From Candidatus Methylomirabilota bacterium (GTDB lineage Bacteria; Methylomirabilota; Methylomirabilia; Methylomirabilales; 2-02-FULL-66-22): a DNA stretch of 64,000 nt. A model generated the notes under the pieces. That model was given only the letters and a program-made list of their open reading frames with translations. It was not told the DNA's origin and made no database searches. Shown in pieces: positions 12,622-18,458 of this stretch. A program made the translations under genes and the position numbers. How positions within the stretch are numbered: the first letter of the stretch is position 1; every line of letters begins with the position of its first letter. Location of the stretch: the NCBI GenBank assembly GCA_026387775.1, contig JAPLLC010000220.1:1203-65202 (forward strand), read 5' to 3'.

Positions 12622-14067
12622 GTGACGAACCCGCCCACGAGAAATCCTGTCAATCGCTGGAATGCGGAGGGCGGATATCGTCAGATCCTGGTCATCGCCT
12701 TCCCGCTGATCCTGAGCACCGGCTCCTGGTCGCTCCAGCATTTCGTCGATCGCATGTTTCTCGCCTGGTACTCGCCCGAAAGCCTCGCGGCCTCGACCCC
12801 GGCCGGCATCCTGAACTACACCGTGATGAGCCTGTTCATCGGCACGGCGGGATACGTCAGCACGTTCGTCGCCCAGTACCACGGGGCGGGCCGGCCCGAG
12901 CGCATCGGTCCGAGTGTCTGGCAGGGGATCTACATCTCGGCCATCGGGGCGATCACCATGGCGCTCCTGATTCCTCTCGCCGGTCCGGCCTTCCGCCTGA
13001 TCGGGCACGCCCCTGAAATCCAGCGCCAGGAGACCGTCTATTTCAGCATCCTCTGTCTCGGGGCCTTCCCGGCCGTCGCCTGCGCGGCGCTGGGGGGATT
13101 CTTCTCCGGACGCGGCGAAACCTGGCCCGTGATGTGGGCGAGCCTGCTCGCCACCGTCGTGAACATCGTCCTCGACTACCTGCTGATCTTCGGCGTCTGG
13201 ATCTTCCCGGAGATGGGCATCGCCGGGGCCGCCATCGCCACCAACCTCTCGATGGTGGCCGCGCTCGCGGCCTACTGTGCGCTGATCGCCCGGGAGAGCC
13301 ACGACCCTCGATTCCGGATCATCCGGGGATGGCGGCTCGACCCGGCGCTCTTCTCCCGGATCATCCGGTTCGGCCTCCCCAACGGCGTCCAGTTCTTCCT
13401 CGACATGGCCGGCTTCACCGTGTTCCTCCTGATCGTCGGCCGCCTGGGCACGGCGGCTCTCGCCGCGACCAACATCGCGCTCAACATCAACACCCTCGCC
13501 TTCATGCCCATGATCGGCCTCGGCATGACCGTGAGCATTCTGGTGGGGCAGCACCTGGGCCGGAACGACGCACCGCTCGCCGTTCGGTGCGTGGGGTCCG
13601 GCTTCCACCTCACCATGCTCTACATGGGCACGATCGCCTTGTTCTACGTGCTCACGCCCGGCCTGTTCCTCGCCCCCTTCGGACTTTACTCCCAGCCGGG
13701 GGCGTACGACGAGATCCGCGGCCTGGCCGAAGTCCTGCTGCGCTTCGTGGCGCTTTACTCCCTCTTCGACGCCCTGACCATCGTGTTCGCCTCGGCGATC
13801 AAGGGGGCGGGCGACAGCCGATTCGTCATGTACATGGTCTCCGGCCTCTCGCTCGGCCTCCTGATCATCCCGAGCTATGTGGCCCTCGAGGTCTTCGGAG
13901 CGGGAATCCTGGCCGGCTGGACCATCGCCACCGTCTACGTGTCCGTCCTCGGCGTGGCATTTTACCTGCGGTTCAGGAGCGGAAAGTGGAAGACCATGCG
14001 GGTCATCGAGCACCCGGGCCGGCAGCCGCCGGCACCGCCGCCGCAGCCGCTCGCCCCGAAGGCATAG
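12622..14067 (+). CDS. MATE-family efflux transporter
   Basis: The 481-aa protein has 12 predicted hydrophobic segments and a duplicated 6-TM architecture with typical MATE blocks (ILSTGSWSLQHFVDRMFL, GLPNGVQFFLDMAGFTVF). The start is GTG. Confidence 0.85.
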   Translation: MTNPPTRNPVNRWNAEGGYRQILVIAFPLILSTGSWSLQHFVDRMFLAWYSPESLAASTPAGILNYTVMSLFIGTAGYVSTFVAQYHGAGRPERIGPSVWQGIYISAIGAITMALLIPLAGPAFRLIGHAPEIQRQETVYFSILCLGAFPAVACAALGGFFSGRGETWPVMWASLLATVVNIVLDYLLIFGVWIFPEMGIAGAAIATNLSMVAALAAYCALIARESHDPRFRIIRGWRLDPALFSRIIRFGLPNGVQFFLDMAGFTVFLLIVGRLGTAALAATNIALNINTLAFMPMIGLGMTVSILVGQHLGRNDAPLAVRCVGSGFHLTMLYMGTIALFYVLTPGLFLAPFGLYSQPGAYDEIRGLAEVLLRFVALYSLFDALTIVFASAIKGAGDSRFVMYMVSGLSLGLLIIPSYVALEVFGAGILAGWTIATVYVSVLGVAFYLRFRSGKWKTMRVIEHPGRQPPAPPPQPLAPKA

Positions 14068-14233: not shown

Positions 14234-14279
14234 AAATCCCCCCTCGCCCCCCTTTGGCAAAGGGGGGTTGGGGGGATTT
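14234..14279. repeat. G/C-run perfect hairpin (AAATCCCCCCTCGCCCCCCTTTG / CAAAGGGGGGTTGGGGGGATTT)
   Basis: A long near-perfect palindrome is read directly in the sequence. It lies between the convergent MATE and CN-hydrolase genes and could act as a bidirectional terminator or REP-like element. Confidence 0.6.
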
Positions 14280-14327
14280 GCTCGAACGCTCTCGTCAGTG
14301 CCCGACGCTATGTGAACAGTATTGGGT

Positions 14328-15152
14328 CTAGCCGTGGAGCTGTTCGGTGATCGTCGTGATGGCGCCGTAGGCGTCGGGGCGTCGGTCGCGGGCCAGGAGG
14401 AATCGCTGCCGCGCCCGGATGACGGACTCTCGCTCGATCTCGGCGCTGACCACCTGCTCCTCGGTCCCGCTGGCCTGGATGAGGATCTTGCCGACCGGGT
14501 CGACGATCATGCTCTTCCCCGACATCACCCACTCGCCCTCCTGCCCCACATGATTGCAGGGGGCCAGGAAGACCCCGTTCTCCAGCGCCCGCGTGGTGAG
14601 GAAGTTCTCCCAGGGATCGGCCGCCGGGGTGGCATAGGGGGCGATGATCAGCTCGGCCCCGTGGAGCATCAGGCAGCGGCAGGACTCCGGGAAGAGGTTG
14701 TCGTAGCAGATCGAGAAGCCGACCGTCCAGTCCCCCACCCGGAACACCGGGAAGGACGATCCGCCCCGGAAGTAGATCTTCTCCAGGCTGAGATATGCCG
14801 CCGGGTGCACCTTGCGGTATTTCCCGACGACCCTCCCTTCCGGACTGATCAGCATCGCCGTGTCGTAGTAGAGGCCGGGTCGCGCCACCTCGAAGATCGT
14901 GGACACGATATGGACGCCGTGCTGCCGCGCTTTCTCCTTCATCCGGGTCTGGGTGTAGCCGTCCTCGGTCTCGGCGTAGTCCAGGTATCGGTAGTCGCGG
15001 TACTGGGGAAAGTACTCGACGTTGAAGAACTCCGGCAGCACGACGATGTCGGGGTGCTGACGGGCGGCCTCGTCCACGAAGGCGCAGGCCCGCTCCACGT
15101 TCTCGTCCCGGGCCGCCGCCCGGCTGTTCATCTGGATCAGGGTCAGTCGCAT
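14328..15152 (-). CDS. Carbon-nitrogen hydrolase (nitrilase superfamily)
   Basis: The start MRLTLIQMN is followed by the catalytic Glu context VVLPEFF, and the Cys context is GFSICYD. ATG 15152 is preceded by GAAGGAG. Confidence 0.8.
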   Translation of the reverse strand: MRLTLIQMNSRAAARDENVERACAFVDEAARQHPDIVVLPEFFNVEYFPQYRDYRYLDYAETEDGYTQTRMKEKARQHGVHIVSTIFEVARPGLYYDTAMLISPEGRVVGKYRKVHPAAYLSLEKIYFRGGSSFPVFRVGDWTVGFSICYDNLFPESCRCLMLHGAELIIAPYATPAADPWENFLTTRALENGVFLAPCNHVGQEGEWVMSGKSMIVDPVGKILIQASGTEEQVVSAEIERESVIRARQRFLLARDRRPDAYGAITTITEQLHG

Positions 15153-15210
15153 GATGGCGCTCCTTCTGCGATGCGTCTCCAGGCCCCCCTGCAAACGATT
15201 CGACTCCCGG

Positions 15211-15324
15211 CTAGCGGAACACTTGCAGGAATCGCACCACGAGGAGGGTCAGCAGCACGACCAGGTACACCCGAAGAAAATAGAGGGCGAAGCGGACCGT
15301 GGGGGTCATTTGCACGCGCGGCAT
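15211..15324 (-). CDS. Possible 37-aa hydrophobic micro-protein (MPRVQMTPTVRFALYFLRVYLVVLLTLLVVRFLQVFR)
   Basis: This small ORF is not in the supplied track (<60 aa). It has a single predicted TM helix and sits between the MgtE_N/CBS gene and the CN-hydrolase gene on the same strand. I see no homology evidence and no strong RBS. Confidence 0.2.
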   Translation of the reverse strand: MPRVQMTPTVRFALYFLRVYLVVLLTLLVVRFLQVFR

Positions 15325-15351: not shown

Positions 15352-16632
15352 TCACGCGGTCTTCATGATGTCCTTGTAACGAATGACGCCGAGGATGCGA
15401 TCCTGCGCATCCACCACGGGAATCATGCGATAGTGGTACTTGGCGAAGATCTGTTCCAGGTCCTCTTGTGTGTCGTCCTGCTCCGCCGACACCACGGGAA
15501 ACGCCATGATCTCGCCCAGGGTTATCTCATCCCCGGCCAGCAGGAGCTCGCGCAGATCCACGACACCCTGCAAGAGCTTGCTCTCGGGCGCCACGACGTA
15601 GGCGTAAGAGAGGTGGTGCGGCTCGAGCCCGGAGCGGCGAATATACTCCAGCACCTCGCGGACCTTCGCCTCTTTCGGAAAGGAGACGAATTCCCCCGAG
15701 AGGAGGTCGCTCGCCTTCGCCTCTCGCGCCGCCAGGATCGTCTTGATCCGCCGAACGCTCTCATCCGGCAAGAGCCCCATCATCTCGGTCGTGTCGTCGT
15801 GCGGAAGCACCGTGAAGAGGTTCGCCAGTTGCGGGATGGTCATCTCCCCCAGGATCTGGCGTGCGCGCTCCTTGCGCAGGTTGGCGATCAACTGCCGCTG
15901 CGCCCGCGGCTCCGCCTCCAGCAGGGTGTCGGCGGCCTTCTCGGAGTCCAGGGCCGAGAAGAGGGCCTCCTGCTCGTTGCCGGTCAGCTCTTCCAGGGCG
16001 TCGGCCAGATCCTCGCTGGGCAGCTCTTTGAGCTGTTTCCGGGTCACCGAGAGCGAAACCTTGTCCGTGATGGTGGCGTCCTCGAGCGAGAGCGGCTGGA
16101 CATACTTCCAGGAGATCAGATCCTCCTTGAACCCCTGGATCCGTCCGAGTCCCCAGCGCCGCAGAAAGCCGTTGAACGAGCTGTCCACATGGATCAGGAG
16201 CAGCCGCCCCTTGGCCTCGAGCAGGTGCACGTCGTTGACCACCTCGGTGCGCCGCCCGTCCATATCCAGGATCGTCCGGCCCATCAGGTGGGTGTCCAGC
16301 ATGATCCAGCCGGGCTGGTCCGCGAAGGGAGGGTAGCTTCCACCCTGCTCGGACGGCAAGACGAAGATCGCATCGTCTTCGATCCGCAGCACTCGATCCC
16401 ACGGGATGATCTCCGTCGGTTTTCCCCAGCCGTGCTCGAGATAGATCCCGACCACCTCGGGGTACGGCTCCTTGAGGGCGAACACCAGATCCGTCAGTCT
16501 CCCAACCCGATCCCGGATCTTGCCCGCGCACACCGGCCGTTTCATCAGGTCGGAGAAGTAAAGGAAGCGGTAGCTGCCGATCCCCGGGGGGAGATCAGGG
16601 ACCCTCTGCATCAGGCTGGGTGGCGTGCCCAT
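15352..16632 (-). CDS. Soluble PRC-barrel + MgtE N-domain + CBS-pair protein (MgtE cytoplasmic sensor module without a membrane domain)
   Basis: The N-terminal PRC-barrel-like segment is YFSDLMKRPVCAGKIRDRVGRLTDLVFALKEPYPEVVGIYLEHGWGKPTEIIPWDRVLRIEDDAIFV. The central acidic helical MgtE_N-like region is LPSEDLADALEELTGNEQEALFSALDSEKAADTLLEAEP...IANL. The C-terminal tandem CBS is VVAPESKLLQGVVDLRELL...IPVVDAQDRILGVIRYKDIM. No hydrophobic segments are present. AGGAGG lies upstream of ATG 16632, which is 10 nt after the Nramp stop. Confidence 0.7.
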   Translation of the reverse strand: MGTPPSLMQRVPDLPPGIGSYRFLYFSDLMKRPVCAGKIRDRVGRLTDLVFALKEPYPEVVGIYLEHGWGKPTEIIPWDRVLRIEDDAIFVLPSEQGGSYPPFADQPGWIMLDTHLMGRTILDMDGRRTEVVNDVHLLEAKGRLLLIHVDSSFNGFLRRWGLGRIQGFKEDLISWKYVQPLSLEDATITDKVSLSVTRKQLKELPSEDLADALEELTGNEQEALFSALDSEKAADTLLEAEPRAQRQLIANLRKERARQILGEMTIPQLANLFTVLPHDDTTEMMGLLPDESVRRIKTILAAREAKASDLLSGEFVSFPKEAKVREVLEYIRRSGLEPHHLSYAYVVAPESKLLQGVVDLRELLLAGDEITLGEIMAFPVVSAEQDDTQEDLEQIFAKYHYRMIPVVDAQDRILGVIRYKDIMKTA

Positions 16633-16641
16633 GGCAGCCTC

Positions 16642-17961
16642 CTACTGCGTCGTCCCGAACCACTGCGGGAACAGCGTGCTCAGGGCAAACAGGGTGGACA
16701 TGATGGTCATGAAGATGGCGATGCTCACGTTGGCGATGTTCTGCCATCGGGTGTTCACCCGGTCGCCCATGAACTCCGGAGAGTTCAGGATCAGGATGAG
16801 GAAGAAGAGACAGGCCGGCAAGAGCGTGACGGCCACGATCTGGACGAACATGGTGATCGTGATCAGCGGCGCCCCCGGGATCAGCACCACCGCCCCGGAG
16901 CTCAGGAGCATCGCCAGGTAGACCACGTAGAACCAGGGCGCATCCCGCACGCTCTTGTTCAGCGAGTGGGCCCAGCCGAAGACCTCCCCCACGGCCCAGG
17001 AGGTGGACAGGGAGATGCACAGGGCCCCCAGGAAGCCCGCATCGAACAGGCCGATGGCGAAGAGCTTGCGGGCCAGATCTCCCTGGCCATGTGGGAGCAG
17101 CGGGACCAGGGCTTCCGCGGTCTGCTTGGCATCCTCGATGGTGATCGGCGGCCGGTGATAATAGAAAGCCGCGCCGGTGGCGATGATGATGAACGCCGCC
17201 ACGGTGCAGGTCACCAGCGAGCCGACGAATGTGTCGATCTTGCCGAACTTGATGTCGTGGAGGTCCAGACCCTTGTCCACCACGGCGCTCTGCTGGAAGA
17301 AGATCTGCCAGGGGGTGATGGTGGTGCCGATGTTGGCCAGGATGATGAAGAGCATGTCCCCCGTGAGACCGCCGGTGAGCGTCGGCACCAGCAGCCCCTT
17401 GGCGACCAGCCCCCAGCCCGGGGCGCTCGGCGTCTCCATCGCCCAGAAGGCCGCGGGGATGTAGACCAGGTTGAACGCGCAGAAGAACAGCGTCAGCTTC
17501 TCGAAGGTCCAGTACCTGCCCGTGATCACCACGACGAACAGGATGGCGGTGACCCCCAGGAACGTGATCCACGGTGAAACGCCGAACAGGCTCATGGCGG
17601 CCATCATCCCGATGTATTCGGTCACCAGGGTGAGCCAGTTGACGATCGCCAGGTCCACCAGCGAGAACCAGCCCCAGAATGGGCCGAACCCTTCGAAGAT
17701 GACCTCCGCGTGGCCGCGCTTGGTGACCGCGCCCAGCCGCACGGTCATCTCCTGGATGTAATAGGCCATGGGGACCAGGATGAAGAAGATCCAGAGGAGG
17801 CTGAAGCCGTACTTGGAGCCGGTTACGGCATACGTCGAGATGCCGCCGGCGTCGTTGTCGGCGACCATGGTGATGATCCCGGGGCCGAGCACGGCGAAGA
17901 GGATCAGGAGCCGCCGCCGAAAGCGGTTCAGGAGGTGGAAGGTTTTGCTGATCCAGTACAT
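16642..17961 (-). CDS. Nramp/SLC11-family transporter of the Nramp-related magnesium transporter (NRMT/NrmT-like) type
   Basis: The 439-aa polytopic protein has Nramp-type TM1 (GPGIITMVADNDAGGISTY) and TM6 (ANIGTTITPWQIFFQQS) blocks. The canonical DPGN is replaced by DAGG, and the canonical GAxxMPH by GTTITPW. The gene sits directly behind an M-box riboswitch. Confidence 0.8.
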   Translation of the reverse strand: MYWISKTFHLLNRFRRRLLILFAVLGPGIITMVADNDAGGISTYAVTGSKYGFSLLWIFFILVPMAYYIQEMTVRLGAVTKRGHAEVIFEGFGPFWGWFSLVDLAIVNWLTLVTEYIGMMAAMSLFGVSPWITFLGVTAILFVVVITGRYWTFEKLTLFFCAFNLVYIPAAFWAMETPSAPGWGLVAKGLLVPTLTGGLTGDMLFIILANIGTTITPWQIFFQQSAVVDKGLDLHDIKFGKIDTFVGSLVTCTVAAFIIIATGAAFYYHRPPITIEDAKQTAEALVPLLPHGQGDLARKLFAIGLFDAGFLGALCISLSTSWAVGEVFGWAHSLNKSVRDAPWFYVVYLAMLLSSGAVVLIPGAPLITITMFVQIVAVTLLPACLFFLILILNSPEFMGDRVNTRWQNIANVSIAIFMTIMSTLFALSTLFPQWFGTTQ

Positions 17962-18104
17962 GGGCGGTTCCGATCATTTGTCGACGCGGCGGCCGCTCGG
18001 CGCGGGCGGCGGAAATCCCGGGCGGCTTCCACCCCGGTACACGAGGATCCCGGGGCTCCTTCTTCACATAGCGGGCGGCGATGGGAATGCGCGATGCGCT
18101 GCAG

Positions 18105-18137
18105 AAACAAAAACCCTTTCCCTGGGTGGGGAAAGGG
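18105..18137 (-). terminator. Intrinsic terminator (expression platform of the M-box)
   Basis: On the minus strand it reads CCCTTTCCC-CACCCA-GGGAAAGGG followed by TTTTTGTTT. It lies between the riboswitch aptamer and the Nramp start codon. Confidence 0.65.
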
Positions 18138-18194
18138 TCAAGACCCTCGACCTTGGCACTTAACAGACGCGCCAACGTCTCCGATCTGCCGGAT

Positions 18195-18365
18195 TCCCCA
18201 CTCGTTCAAGTTTTGGCACCGCGCACCGTGAGAGGCCGACGGCCTCAGCCACTTCGAGCAAACCCTTAATCCGGGAGTGCTTGGTCTACCCGTCAACCAG
18301 CGTCTCTCGACGCCGCCGGGCAGCGGCCTGTGTGTCGCGCGGGAGCCTCACCTACCGAGGACCCG
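18195..18365 (-). promoter_or_regulatory. M-box (ykoK-type) Mg2+-sensing riboswitch aptamer
   Basis: The minus-strand RNA reads CCUCGGUAGGUGAGGCUCCCG...ACAGGCCGCUGCCCGGCGGCGUCGAGAGACGCUGGUUGACGGGUAGACC...AUUAAGGG...GGUGCCAAAACUUGAACGAGUGG. This reproduces the conserved M-box blocks as I remember them from B. subtilis mgtE: GUUAGGUGAGGCUCC, GCUGCCC, AGACGCUAAUGGGUCAAC, AAGG, GUGCUAAAGCUCUACGA. P1 pairing is CCUCG/CGAG. Confidence 0.8.
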
Positions 18366-18429
18366 TAACATGTTCTTTCGCTGCCATCACGCGGAGCCGC
18401 CACGGGCCGCCCCGCGAATATCCAACCGC

Positions 18430-18458
18430 TATTTAAGCCGAGATAGCCGGCCTGTCAA
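18430..18458 (-). promoter_or_regulatory. Sigma-70-like promoter for the M-box/Nramp operon
   Basis: The minus strand reads TTGACA-17 nt-TAAATA (ttgacaggccggctatctcggcttaaata), about 60 nt upstream of the aptamer. Confidence 0.45.

Follow-up and report, generated by a model that had tools for sequence, protein, structure and literature searches.

A pore-less PRC-PRC-MgtE_N-CBS protein encoded beside an NRMT-type carrier, a possible regulator acting in trans

The 64,000-nucleotide stretch of Candidatus Methylomirabilota contig JAPLLC010000220.1 analysed here (the window) encodes a soluble protein, the sensor, that looks like the cytosolic part of an MgtE magnesium channel detached from its pore. 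Its gene directly follows that of an NRMT-type Nramp carrier in a unit headed by an M-box Mg2+ riboswitch, and is itself followed by a gene for a small hydrophobic peptide. The sensor has about an even chance of being a soluble cytoplasmic regulatory subunit of the adjacent Mg2+(/Mn2+) carrier; we infer its physical binding to the carrier, the identity of its ligand and the inhibitory direction of its action. An earlier, sequence-only reading of the window had proposed such a link and was aware of no characterised example, whereas the pairing and the feedback idea are both set out in the main text of Shin et al. 2014 (PMC4072509). In proposing regulation by a soluble sensor, that reading thus rediscovered a hypothesis already in print, and the locus adds a case to a functionally uncharacterised pairing. 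The tandem PRC barrels, the pore-fused relatives, the diverged ligand sites and the three-gene cassette with its microprotein are new here.

Domain architecture of the sensor and its relatives

The domains that the sequence-only reading had assigned to the 426-aa open reading frame (PRC, MgtE_N and CBS) were all matched in a Pfam search with hidden Markov models (HMMs; Table 1). The best PDB sequence match of the sensor is the cytosolic domain of Thermus thermophilus MgtE (2yvy, E 4.9e-25, query 196-423), and its MgtE_N domain and CBS pair align with the N domain and CBS domains of that structure. The full-length AlphaFold2 (AF2) model, with a pLDDT of 78.9, also has 2yvy as its top Foldseek match (E 1e-18). 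The pTM of this model is 0.42 because of a flexible linker at residues 181-200, and the relative orientation of the domains, including closure of N on CBS, is uninterpretable in it.

The absence of a pore and of any hydrophobic segment, likewise claimed earlier, is borne out. The TIGR00400 (mgtE) profile is matched over positions 18-248 of 450 only, with 113 bits against a cutoff of 232.75, and the pore half is therefore absent from the sensor. The Pfam scan gave the sensor no match to the MgtE pore family PF01769, and hydropathy gave no transmembrane (TM) segment, the maximum 19-residue Kyte-Doolittle mean being 1.44. In the 2yvy alignment the C-terminus lies three residues past CBS2, without the plug helix. 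The protein is acidic, with a computed isoelectric point (pI) of 5.06. A split MgtE channel encoded within the 64-kb window was considered and rejected, as a search of the window found no separate MgtE pore gene.

The N-terminal part had been read as one extra PRC barrel. The PRC assignment holds, but there are two barrels and not one. Residues 95-200 have no Pfam match even at E <= 10; within them, residues ~104-180 form the most conserved domain of the sensor family in the alignments. This region aligns with the first barrel (PRC1) in hhalign (probability 89.5%, E 2e-6). In AF2 models PRC1 is a beta-barrel with a pLDDT of 85-93, and a model of residues 1-200 places both barrels confidently (pTM 0.75). 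The best structural match of residues 1-200 is the PRC heterodimer CdpB1/CdpB2 (8qzo, E 5e-6, target-normalised TM-score 0.63-0.68), and lower matches include RC-H subunits, MTH1859, RimM and 3htr. The hhalign result, the AF2 model and the 8qzo match together give the architecture PRC-PRC-MgtE_N-CBS-CBS.

The sensor belongs to a family of at least 2147 proteins at E <= 1e-5 in a word-indexed search, and 268 clusters at 50% identity match it at E <= 1e-30 in an exhaustive search. Members are annotated as 'CBS domain-containing protein', 'MgtE N-terminal domain-containing protein' or, wrongly, 'magnesium transporter', a frequent misannotation that may mislead metabolic reconstructions. Among the 150 best representatives, ~90 are soluble full-length proteins of ~420 aa, and ~10 are proteins of ~600 aa with five TM segments. 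Three of the long relatives scanned (P0197, P0207 and P0216) combine PRC, MgtE_N and a CBS pair with the PF01769 pore; a fourth, P0248 (621 aa, six hydrophobic segments), had no PF01769 match. The PRC barrels, which the sequence-only reading took for an extra domain, are thus not peculiar to the soluble protein, and the window sensor corresponds to the cytosolic part of PRC-containing MgtE channels. Since this module is fused to a five-TM MgtE pore in the channels, it is one that regulates a divalent-cation pathway when attached. Six residues of the second barrel (D123, D134, D150, R158, R159 and W175) hardly vary, either among the soluble clades or among the PRC-MgtE channels. Being common to both, they probably serve the module itself and not an Nramp-specific contact. 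PRC barrels mentioned together with MgtE were not found in the literature searched.

Looking like MgtE minus its pore, the sensor could be taken for a decaying, functionless remnant of a split MgtE gene, but conservation effectively refutes this. The relatives are intact and full-length, identity of about 58-98% is kept across phyla, the clusters at 50% identity number in the hundreds as given above, and many columns of the sensor alignments are invariant.

The carrier, its riboswitch and the conserved cassette

The best PDB match of the carrier is the Mg2+ transporter EleNRMT (7qia, E 5.1e-63), other solved Nramp-family structures matching at 4e-18 or weaker. The NDAGGISTY motif is identical in the two proteins, and the EleNRMT site residues D55, G58, T224, E133 and Q379 have the equivalents D37, G40, T213, E115 and Q374 in the carrier. 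The position of the classical-Nramp Met is T216 in the carrier and Ala227 in EleNRMT. The NRMT signature, as described by Ramanadane et al. 2022, keeps the alpha1 Asp, replaces Asn by Gly, changes Ala to Thr and Met to Ala in alpha6, and has a Gln in alpha10. D37, G40, T213 and Q374 of the carrier agree with this signature, whereas its T216 stands where the signature has Ala. By its best structural match the carrier is NRMT-like, and it is predicted to take up Mg2+(/Mn2+).

Carrier and sensor do share a riboswitch-headed unit, as had been proposed (Table 1). The 3' strand of P1 in the aptamer, GUGGGGAA (18201..18194), has its complement UUCCCCAC (18133..18126) within the left arm of the terminator and is a candidate antiterminator; this pairing would follow the usual M-box antiterminator logic. 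A sigma-70 consensus scan reported no promoter upstream of the riboswitch, and missed the promoter-like element in Table 1 because its -10 ends in A. The gap between the carrier and sensor genes measures 9 nt (16633..16641), not the 10 nt given earlier, which suggests translational coupling or co-transcription. The sensor's own AGGAGG, noted in the sequence-only reading, was located at 16643..16638.

Table 1. Features of the riboswitch-carrier-sensor-peptide unit, in window coordinates (aa, amino acids; RBS, ribosome-binding site; MFE, minimum free energy)
Feature	Coordinates	Strand	Evidence or remark
Promoter-like TTGACA-N17-TAAATA	18430..18458	-	Read by eye, consensus resemblance only; upstream of riboswitch
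M-box (ykoK-type) Mg2+ riboswitch aptamer	18190..18366	-	Rfam RF00380, 120.4 bits vs gathering 44, E 2.1e-27, full model 1-169
Expression-platform intrinsic terminator, 11-bp stem + UUUGUUUCUG	18102..18139	-	Terminator scan (18139..18112, U-tract) and MFE fold
NRMT-type Nramp carrier gene, 439 aa	16642..17961	-	Pfam Nramp, E 3.7e-72
AGGAGG RBS of sensor gene	16638..16643	-	5 nt from ATG at 16632; overlaps Nramp TAG stop
Soluble PRC-PRC-MgtE_N-CBS-CBS protein (sensor), 426 aa	15352..16632	-	Pfam, TIGR00400, PDB, hydropathy, AF2/Foldseek
PRC barrel 1, residues 24-94	16351..16563	-	Pfam PF05239, 32.7 bits vs cutoff 21.2
Second PRC-like barrel, residues ~104-180	16093..16323	-	hhalign and AF2 fold
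MgtE_N helical domain, residues 205-301	15730..16020	-	Pfam PF03448, 64.3 bits, E 1.6e-17
CBS pair, residues ~309-424	15361..15708	-	Pfam CBS, two stretches, 59.4 bits, E 4.3e-16
37-aa hydrophobic peptide gene MPRVQMTPTVRFALYFLRVYLVVLLTLLVVRFLQVFR	15211..15324	-	Starts 27 nt after sensor stop; GAGGAG 6 nt upstream

The co-occurrence of the two genes, which the sequence-only reading had proposed to survey, was examined in two sets of relatives. The close clade was drawn from contigs of one genome per species and comprises 38 relatives (L001-L038), 58-97% identical to the sensor, from at least seven phyla: Methylomirabilota (NC10), Acidobacteriota, Planctomycetota, Eisenbacteria, Gemmatimonadota, Desulfobacterota/Syntrophia and Sumerlaeota. 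In 35 of the 38 loci the gene immediately upstream, in the same orientation, is an Nramp gene, or in 35/36 assessable loci when the two cut by contig ends are set aside. The sensor and the carrier of L001, a metagenome-assembled genome of candidate division NC10, are 97% and 95% identical to those of the window. The distant clade came from a metagenome scan with an 8-sequence profile of relatives ~30% identical to the sensor, which gave 80 loci (L039-L118). In 69 of these the next gene downstream of the sensor is Nramp-like, with 31-40% identity over long matches (convergent in five), and eight loci are contig-cut, so that adjacency holds in 69/72 assessable loci. The order is carrier then sensor in the close clade and sensor then carrier in the distant clade; the linkage therefore survives gene-order inversion and deep divergence. 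Over 86 pairs, the pairwise distances of sensor and carrier correlate with r = 0.86 overall and with 0.56 and 0.67 inside the two clades, and 0/999 permutations of a Mantel test reached the observed value. The proposed co-occurrence is thus strongly borne out in both clades.

The sole assessable close locus lacking an Nramp gene is L026, where the sensor homologue (L026:5902-7233) adjoins a divergent CDF cation-efflux gene with Cation_efflux and ZT_dimer domains (L026:4926-5867, minus strand) and has no peptide gene. This hints that the sensor module can pair with other cation transporters. The true exceptions in the distant clade, L068 and L111, have no transporter neighbour, with Glyco_transf_9 upstream and DctM or Peptidase_M48 convergent downstream. 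Another Nramp gene, of 446-454 aa, stands ~1.3 kb beyond the cassette on its downstream side in two metagenomic contigs (L122:5408-6772 and L123:3377-4717). A Planctomycetaceae cassette has a group II intron match (RF00029, 54.9 bits, L032:4241-4321) ~200 nt upstream of its Nramp gene.

The sensor could be co-regulated with the carrier and yet act on another target, such as another transporter or the ribosome, adjacency then reflecting a shared need at low Mg2+. PRC barrels do occur in the ribosome-maturation factor RimM, and L026, L068 and L111 have the neighbours just described. This is nonetheless quite improbable, as Nramp adjacency holds in 104/108 assessable loci across ~30% identity and a change of gene order, other neighbours vary, sensor and carrier co-diverge, and the 64-kb window contains no MgtE pore gene.

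The riboswitch is less widespread than the gene pair. Rfam scans of subsets of the loci found an M-box in 5/35 close loci (the NC10-like L001, L002, L003 and L016, plus L024) and in one of the 20 distant loci scanned out of 80 (L081), where it recurs independently. The window M-box is 92% identical to those of the five close loci. The L024 M-box (L024:3521-3696, deltaproteobacterial) lies ~900 nt upstream of the Nramp start, compared with ~100-230 nt in NC10-type loci. The two-layer homeostat put forward in the sequence-only reading could therefore hold for a minority of cassettes only, the one in the window among them.

The 37-aa product encoded after the sensor is a predicted single-pass membrane peptide. 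A peptide HMM matches the window and 34 of the loci L001-L038, and each time the match comes straight after the sensor gene; the misses are L026, L038 and the loci that a contig end cuts. Identity at the three codon positions (0.585/0.753/0.436) has the pattern of a coding sequence. In the alignments made, M1, L14, L17, Y20 and F32 show little or no variation, and P2, R3 and T7 (of an N-terminal MPRxxxT motif), L21, L27 and the basic residues at positions 11 and 31 vary very little. The peptide has no match to Pfam, NCBIfam or the plug and TM regions of MgtE, and gene callers annotate it as 'hypothetical protein' with no family name. Its family comprises 572 or more clusters at 90% identity, and nearly all of them are 36-37 aa long. 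For three diverse members, the gene stands right after a PRC/MgtE_N/CBS gene in 9/9 further places, and an Nramp gene precedes the pair wherever the contig reaches (6/9 further places), with differing outer neighbours. Carrier, sensor and peptide form a conserved three-gene cassette in the close clade. The peptide HMM had no match in the distant clade (L039-L118), where many sensors end in a short basic tail. Small open reading frames after the distant-clade Nramp genes were considered as peptide genes and rejected, being the carrier's own C-terminus.

Beyond the peptide gene, after a short gap and on the same strand, lies a carbon-nitrogen hydrolase gene (14328..15194, PF00795 E 8e-57). It is kept there only in the closest relatives, L001 and L003, and is therefore probably a lineage-specific neighbour and not part of the cassette. 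Between it and the convergent MatE gene (12622..14067, plus strand) is a G/C-rich inverted repeat, ccccctcgcccccctttggcaaaggggggttgggggg (~14237..14280), that looks like a bidirectional terminator.

Ligand sites, proposed action and alternatives

The ligand sites were compared in a 324-sequence alignment that contains 207 relatives of the close clade, with Thermus residue roles taken from PMC5882242 and PMC5529423 (Table 2). The cytosolic Mg2+ ligands of Thermus MgtE (Mg2-Mg7) are E59, D91, D95, D226, D247, D250, E258 and D259 (PMC5882242), and of these only E59 and D247 have kept equivalents in the window protein. D91, D95 and D247 mostly persist in the soluble sensors of the distant clade and in the channels with PRC barrels. 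The ATP contacts in the MgtE-ATP complex 5x9g are Y170, R187, D188, N203, V207 (main chain) and F227 (PMC5529423). The claim in the sequence-only reading that the same module binds Mg2+ is unsupported for the close clade, because the Thermus ligands at D91, D95, D226 and D250 and in the plug helix are replaced, variable or absent while the ATP-site residues are better kept. By these residues, the sensing of a nucleotide, or a cation site of another build, would be at least as likely in the close clade as MgtE-type Mg2+ binding.

Table 2. Thermus MgtE ligand residues and their equivalents in the sensor
Thermus residue	Sensor equivalent	Close-clade state or remark
E59 (Mg7)	D235	Asp/Glu throughout
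D247 (Mg4)	D421	Asp in 191/207
D91 (Mg4)	P267	Pro in 175/207
D95 (Mg6)	N271	Variable Gly/Asn/Asp
D226 (Mg5)	H400	His in 193/207
D250 (Mg5)	K424	Window protein only; assigned by extending ungapped alignment
E258, D259 (Mg2, Mg3)	None	Plug helix absent
Y170 (ATP)	Y343	207/207
R187 (ATP)	R361	207/207
D188 (ATP)	E362	Glu or Asp in 207/207
V207 (ATP, main chain)	V381	207/207
F227 (ATP)	Y401	198/207
N203 (adenine contact)	A377	Not kept; Ala or Val

MgtE uptake is regulated at two levels, by the M-box on transcription and by the cytosolic domain on the pore, and the sensor may bring a similar arrangement to the carrier. The M-box would let the operon of carrier, sensor and peptide be transcribed only at low cytoplasmic Mg2+. 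NRMT carriers, once made, would keep importing, and the sensor would give fast post-translational feedback. Such a brake would be useful because NRMT transport is not proton-coupled, as reported by Ramanadane et al. 2022, and because proteins outlive the transcriptional signal. Binding of a cytoplasmic ligand would shift the conformation of the MgtE_N/CBS half; this ligand would be an adenine nucleotide or Mg-nucleotide at the conserved CBS site, a divalent cation, or both. Docking of the sensor onto the cytoplasmic face of the carrier would fall to the tandem PRC barrels, perhaps helped by the membrane peptide, and the docked sensor would block or slow the transport cycle. By resemblance to CdpB1/CdpB2 the PRC tandem is a candidate docking module, and the single-pass peptide is a candidate tether. 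The action would resemble that of the attached cytosolic domain closing the MgtE pore, or of GlnK plugging AmtB.

Regulation of this kind was among the roles speculated on by Shin et al. 2014 (PMC4072509), whose main text gives cytoplasmic feedback regulation or a metal chaperone as possible functions of an MgtE-like fragment. [quoted passage not shown] In the Clostridium acetobutylicum Ca_c0685 operon, the MgtE-like fragment is split in two (PMC4072509). A later paper on the MgtE-like fragment beside NrmT was not found in the literature searched, and the tandem PRC barrels, the loss of Mg2+ ligands and the 37-aa peptide were not found there or in the main text of PMC4072509.

Several observations weigh against the sensor as a regulatory subunit of the carrier. 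Most of the Thermus Mg2+ ligands are lost in the close clade (D91 to Pro, D226 to His, D95 variable, and D250 to K424 in the window protein), and with the plug helix absent too, the gating mechanism of MgtE would not be simply transferable. The adenine-contacting N203 is also replaced, by Ala or Val, and most cassettes lack an M-box. The C. acetobutylicum carriers complement alone, the MgtE-like gene being dispensable, and the one experiment on such a pair, co-expression of Acidobacterium capsulatum Acp2976 and Acp2977 in a Bacillus subtilis Mg2+-transport mutant, gave no further rescue, as reported in the main text of PMC4072509. Purified EleNRMT, described as a Mg2+/Mn2+ uniporter-like transporter, works in liposomes without a partner protein (Ramanadane et al. 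2022); MgtE is named in the available text of that paper only as an unrelated Mg2+ transporter.

A related, tentative reading is a three-component system in which the NRMT carrier works with a PRC/MgtE_N/CBS sensor lacking MgtE-type Mg2+ sites and with the peptide, the sensor being tethered by the peptide or by its PRC barrels. Such a sensor may respond to a different signal, for example to an adenine nucleotide or Mg-ATP, or through the conserved His400 to a transition metal. If true, this would be the first case of an MgtE regulatory module serving in trans a transporter of unrelated fold, with a microprotein as adaptor.

Joint expression of the three genes at low Mg2+ alone, a state that calls for uptake, would also suit a positive role, in which the sensor and the 37-aa peptide are accessory or assembly factors for the activity, stability or oligomeric state of the carrier. 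KtrA plays such a part for KtrB, and the small peptides KdpF and MgtS do so for their transporters. The strict conservation of the cassette and the loss of the canonical inhibitory Mg2+ sites and plug helix fit this role too. It is unlikely, however, given that the related NRMTs of the two studies above function alone in heterologous hosts and liposomes, that rescue was not improved by co-expression of the A. capsulatum pair, and that the homologous module is inhibitory in MgtE.

The conserved H400, standing in place of the Mg5 Asp, bears on the other role raised by Shin et al. 2014, that of a cytoplasmic metal chaperone or buffer that takes the cation, perhaps a transition metal, from the carrier. 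The low pI, the invariant acidic D123, D134 and D150 of PRC2, the many cassettes that lack an M-box and the apparent Mn2+ preference of the A. capsulatum partner carrier (PMC4072509) would agree with it. A chaperone is improbable, though: millimolar Mg2+ needs none, the same PRC2 residues occur in pore-fused MgtE channels, where the role makes little sense, the carrier's site residues match those of Mg2+-transporting EleNRMT, and in the window a Mg2+ riboswitch heads the unit.

If the sensor is instead a regulatory subunit, and a detached module does control an Nramp-fold carrier, a gate that senses a ligand would be transferable between transporters of unrelated architecture, and it would explain how NRMT carriers that are not proton-coupled avoid overloading the cell. 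The conserved residues D123, D134, D150, R158, R159, W175, Y343, R361, H400 and Y401 offer mutational handles.

Comparison with known systems

GlnK acting on AmtB and KtrA/TrkA acting on KtrB/TrkH are operon-encoded soluble regulators that act on a transporter in trans. The likeness to the window pair is a functional analogy, in that a cytoplasmic protein, in the window a putative sensor of a small ligand, is encoded beside a transporter. The folds are unrelated (PII and RCK).

CdpB1 and CdpB2 belong to an unrelated biology, archaeal cell division, where they tether the division ring and provide a docking module for a membrane protein. As in the CdpB1/CdpB2 structures (8qzo, 8onw), two PRC barrels are packed side by side in the sensor model; in CdpB1/CdpB2 they belong to two separate small proteins, whereas the sensor has them in tandem in one chain, and identity is 13-15%.

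The MgtE-like fragments of Shin et al. 2014, such as A. capsulatum Acp2976, are stand-alone homologues of the MgtE N-terminal part beside an NrmT-group Nramp gene, often with an M-box, as in the window. The window order is carrier then sensor, whereas the A. capsulatum sensor comes first, as in the distant clade.

The cytosolic domain of T. thermophilus MgtE (2yvy, 2yvx, 5x9g) shares its N domain and CBS pair with the sensor, and its ATP-site residues Y170, R187, D188 and F227 have conserved sensor equivalents. The window sensor differs in lacking the plug helix and the five-TM pore, in the replacement of Mg4, Mg5 and Mg6 ligands within its clade, and in ~200 extra N-terminal residues that hold the two PRC barrels.

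The PRC-containing MgtE channels of ~600 aa have the identical order PRC-PRC-MgtE_N-CBS pair over query residues 24-423, with ~30-33% identity and the same six PRC2 residues. The channels carry the PF01769 pore with its five TM segments and mostly keep the D91, D95 and D247 ligands, whereas the window protein is pore-less and is encoded beside a carrier of the LeuT fold.

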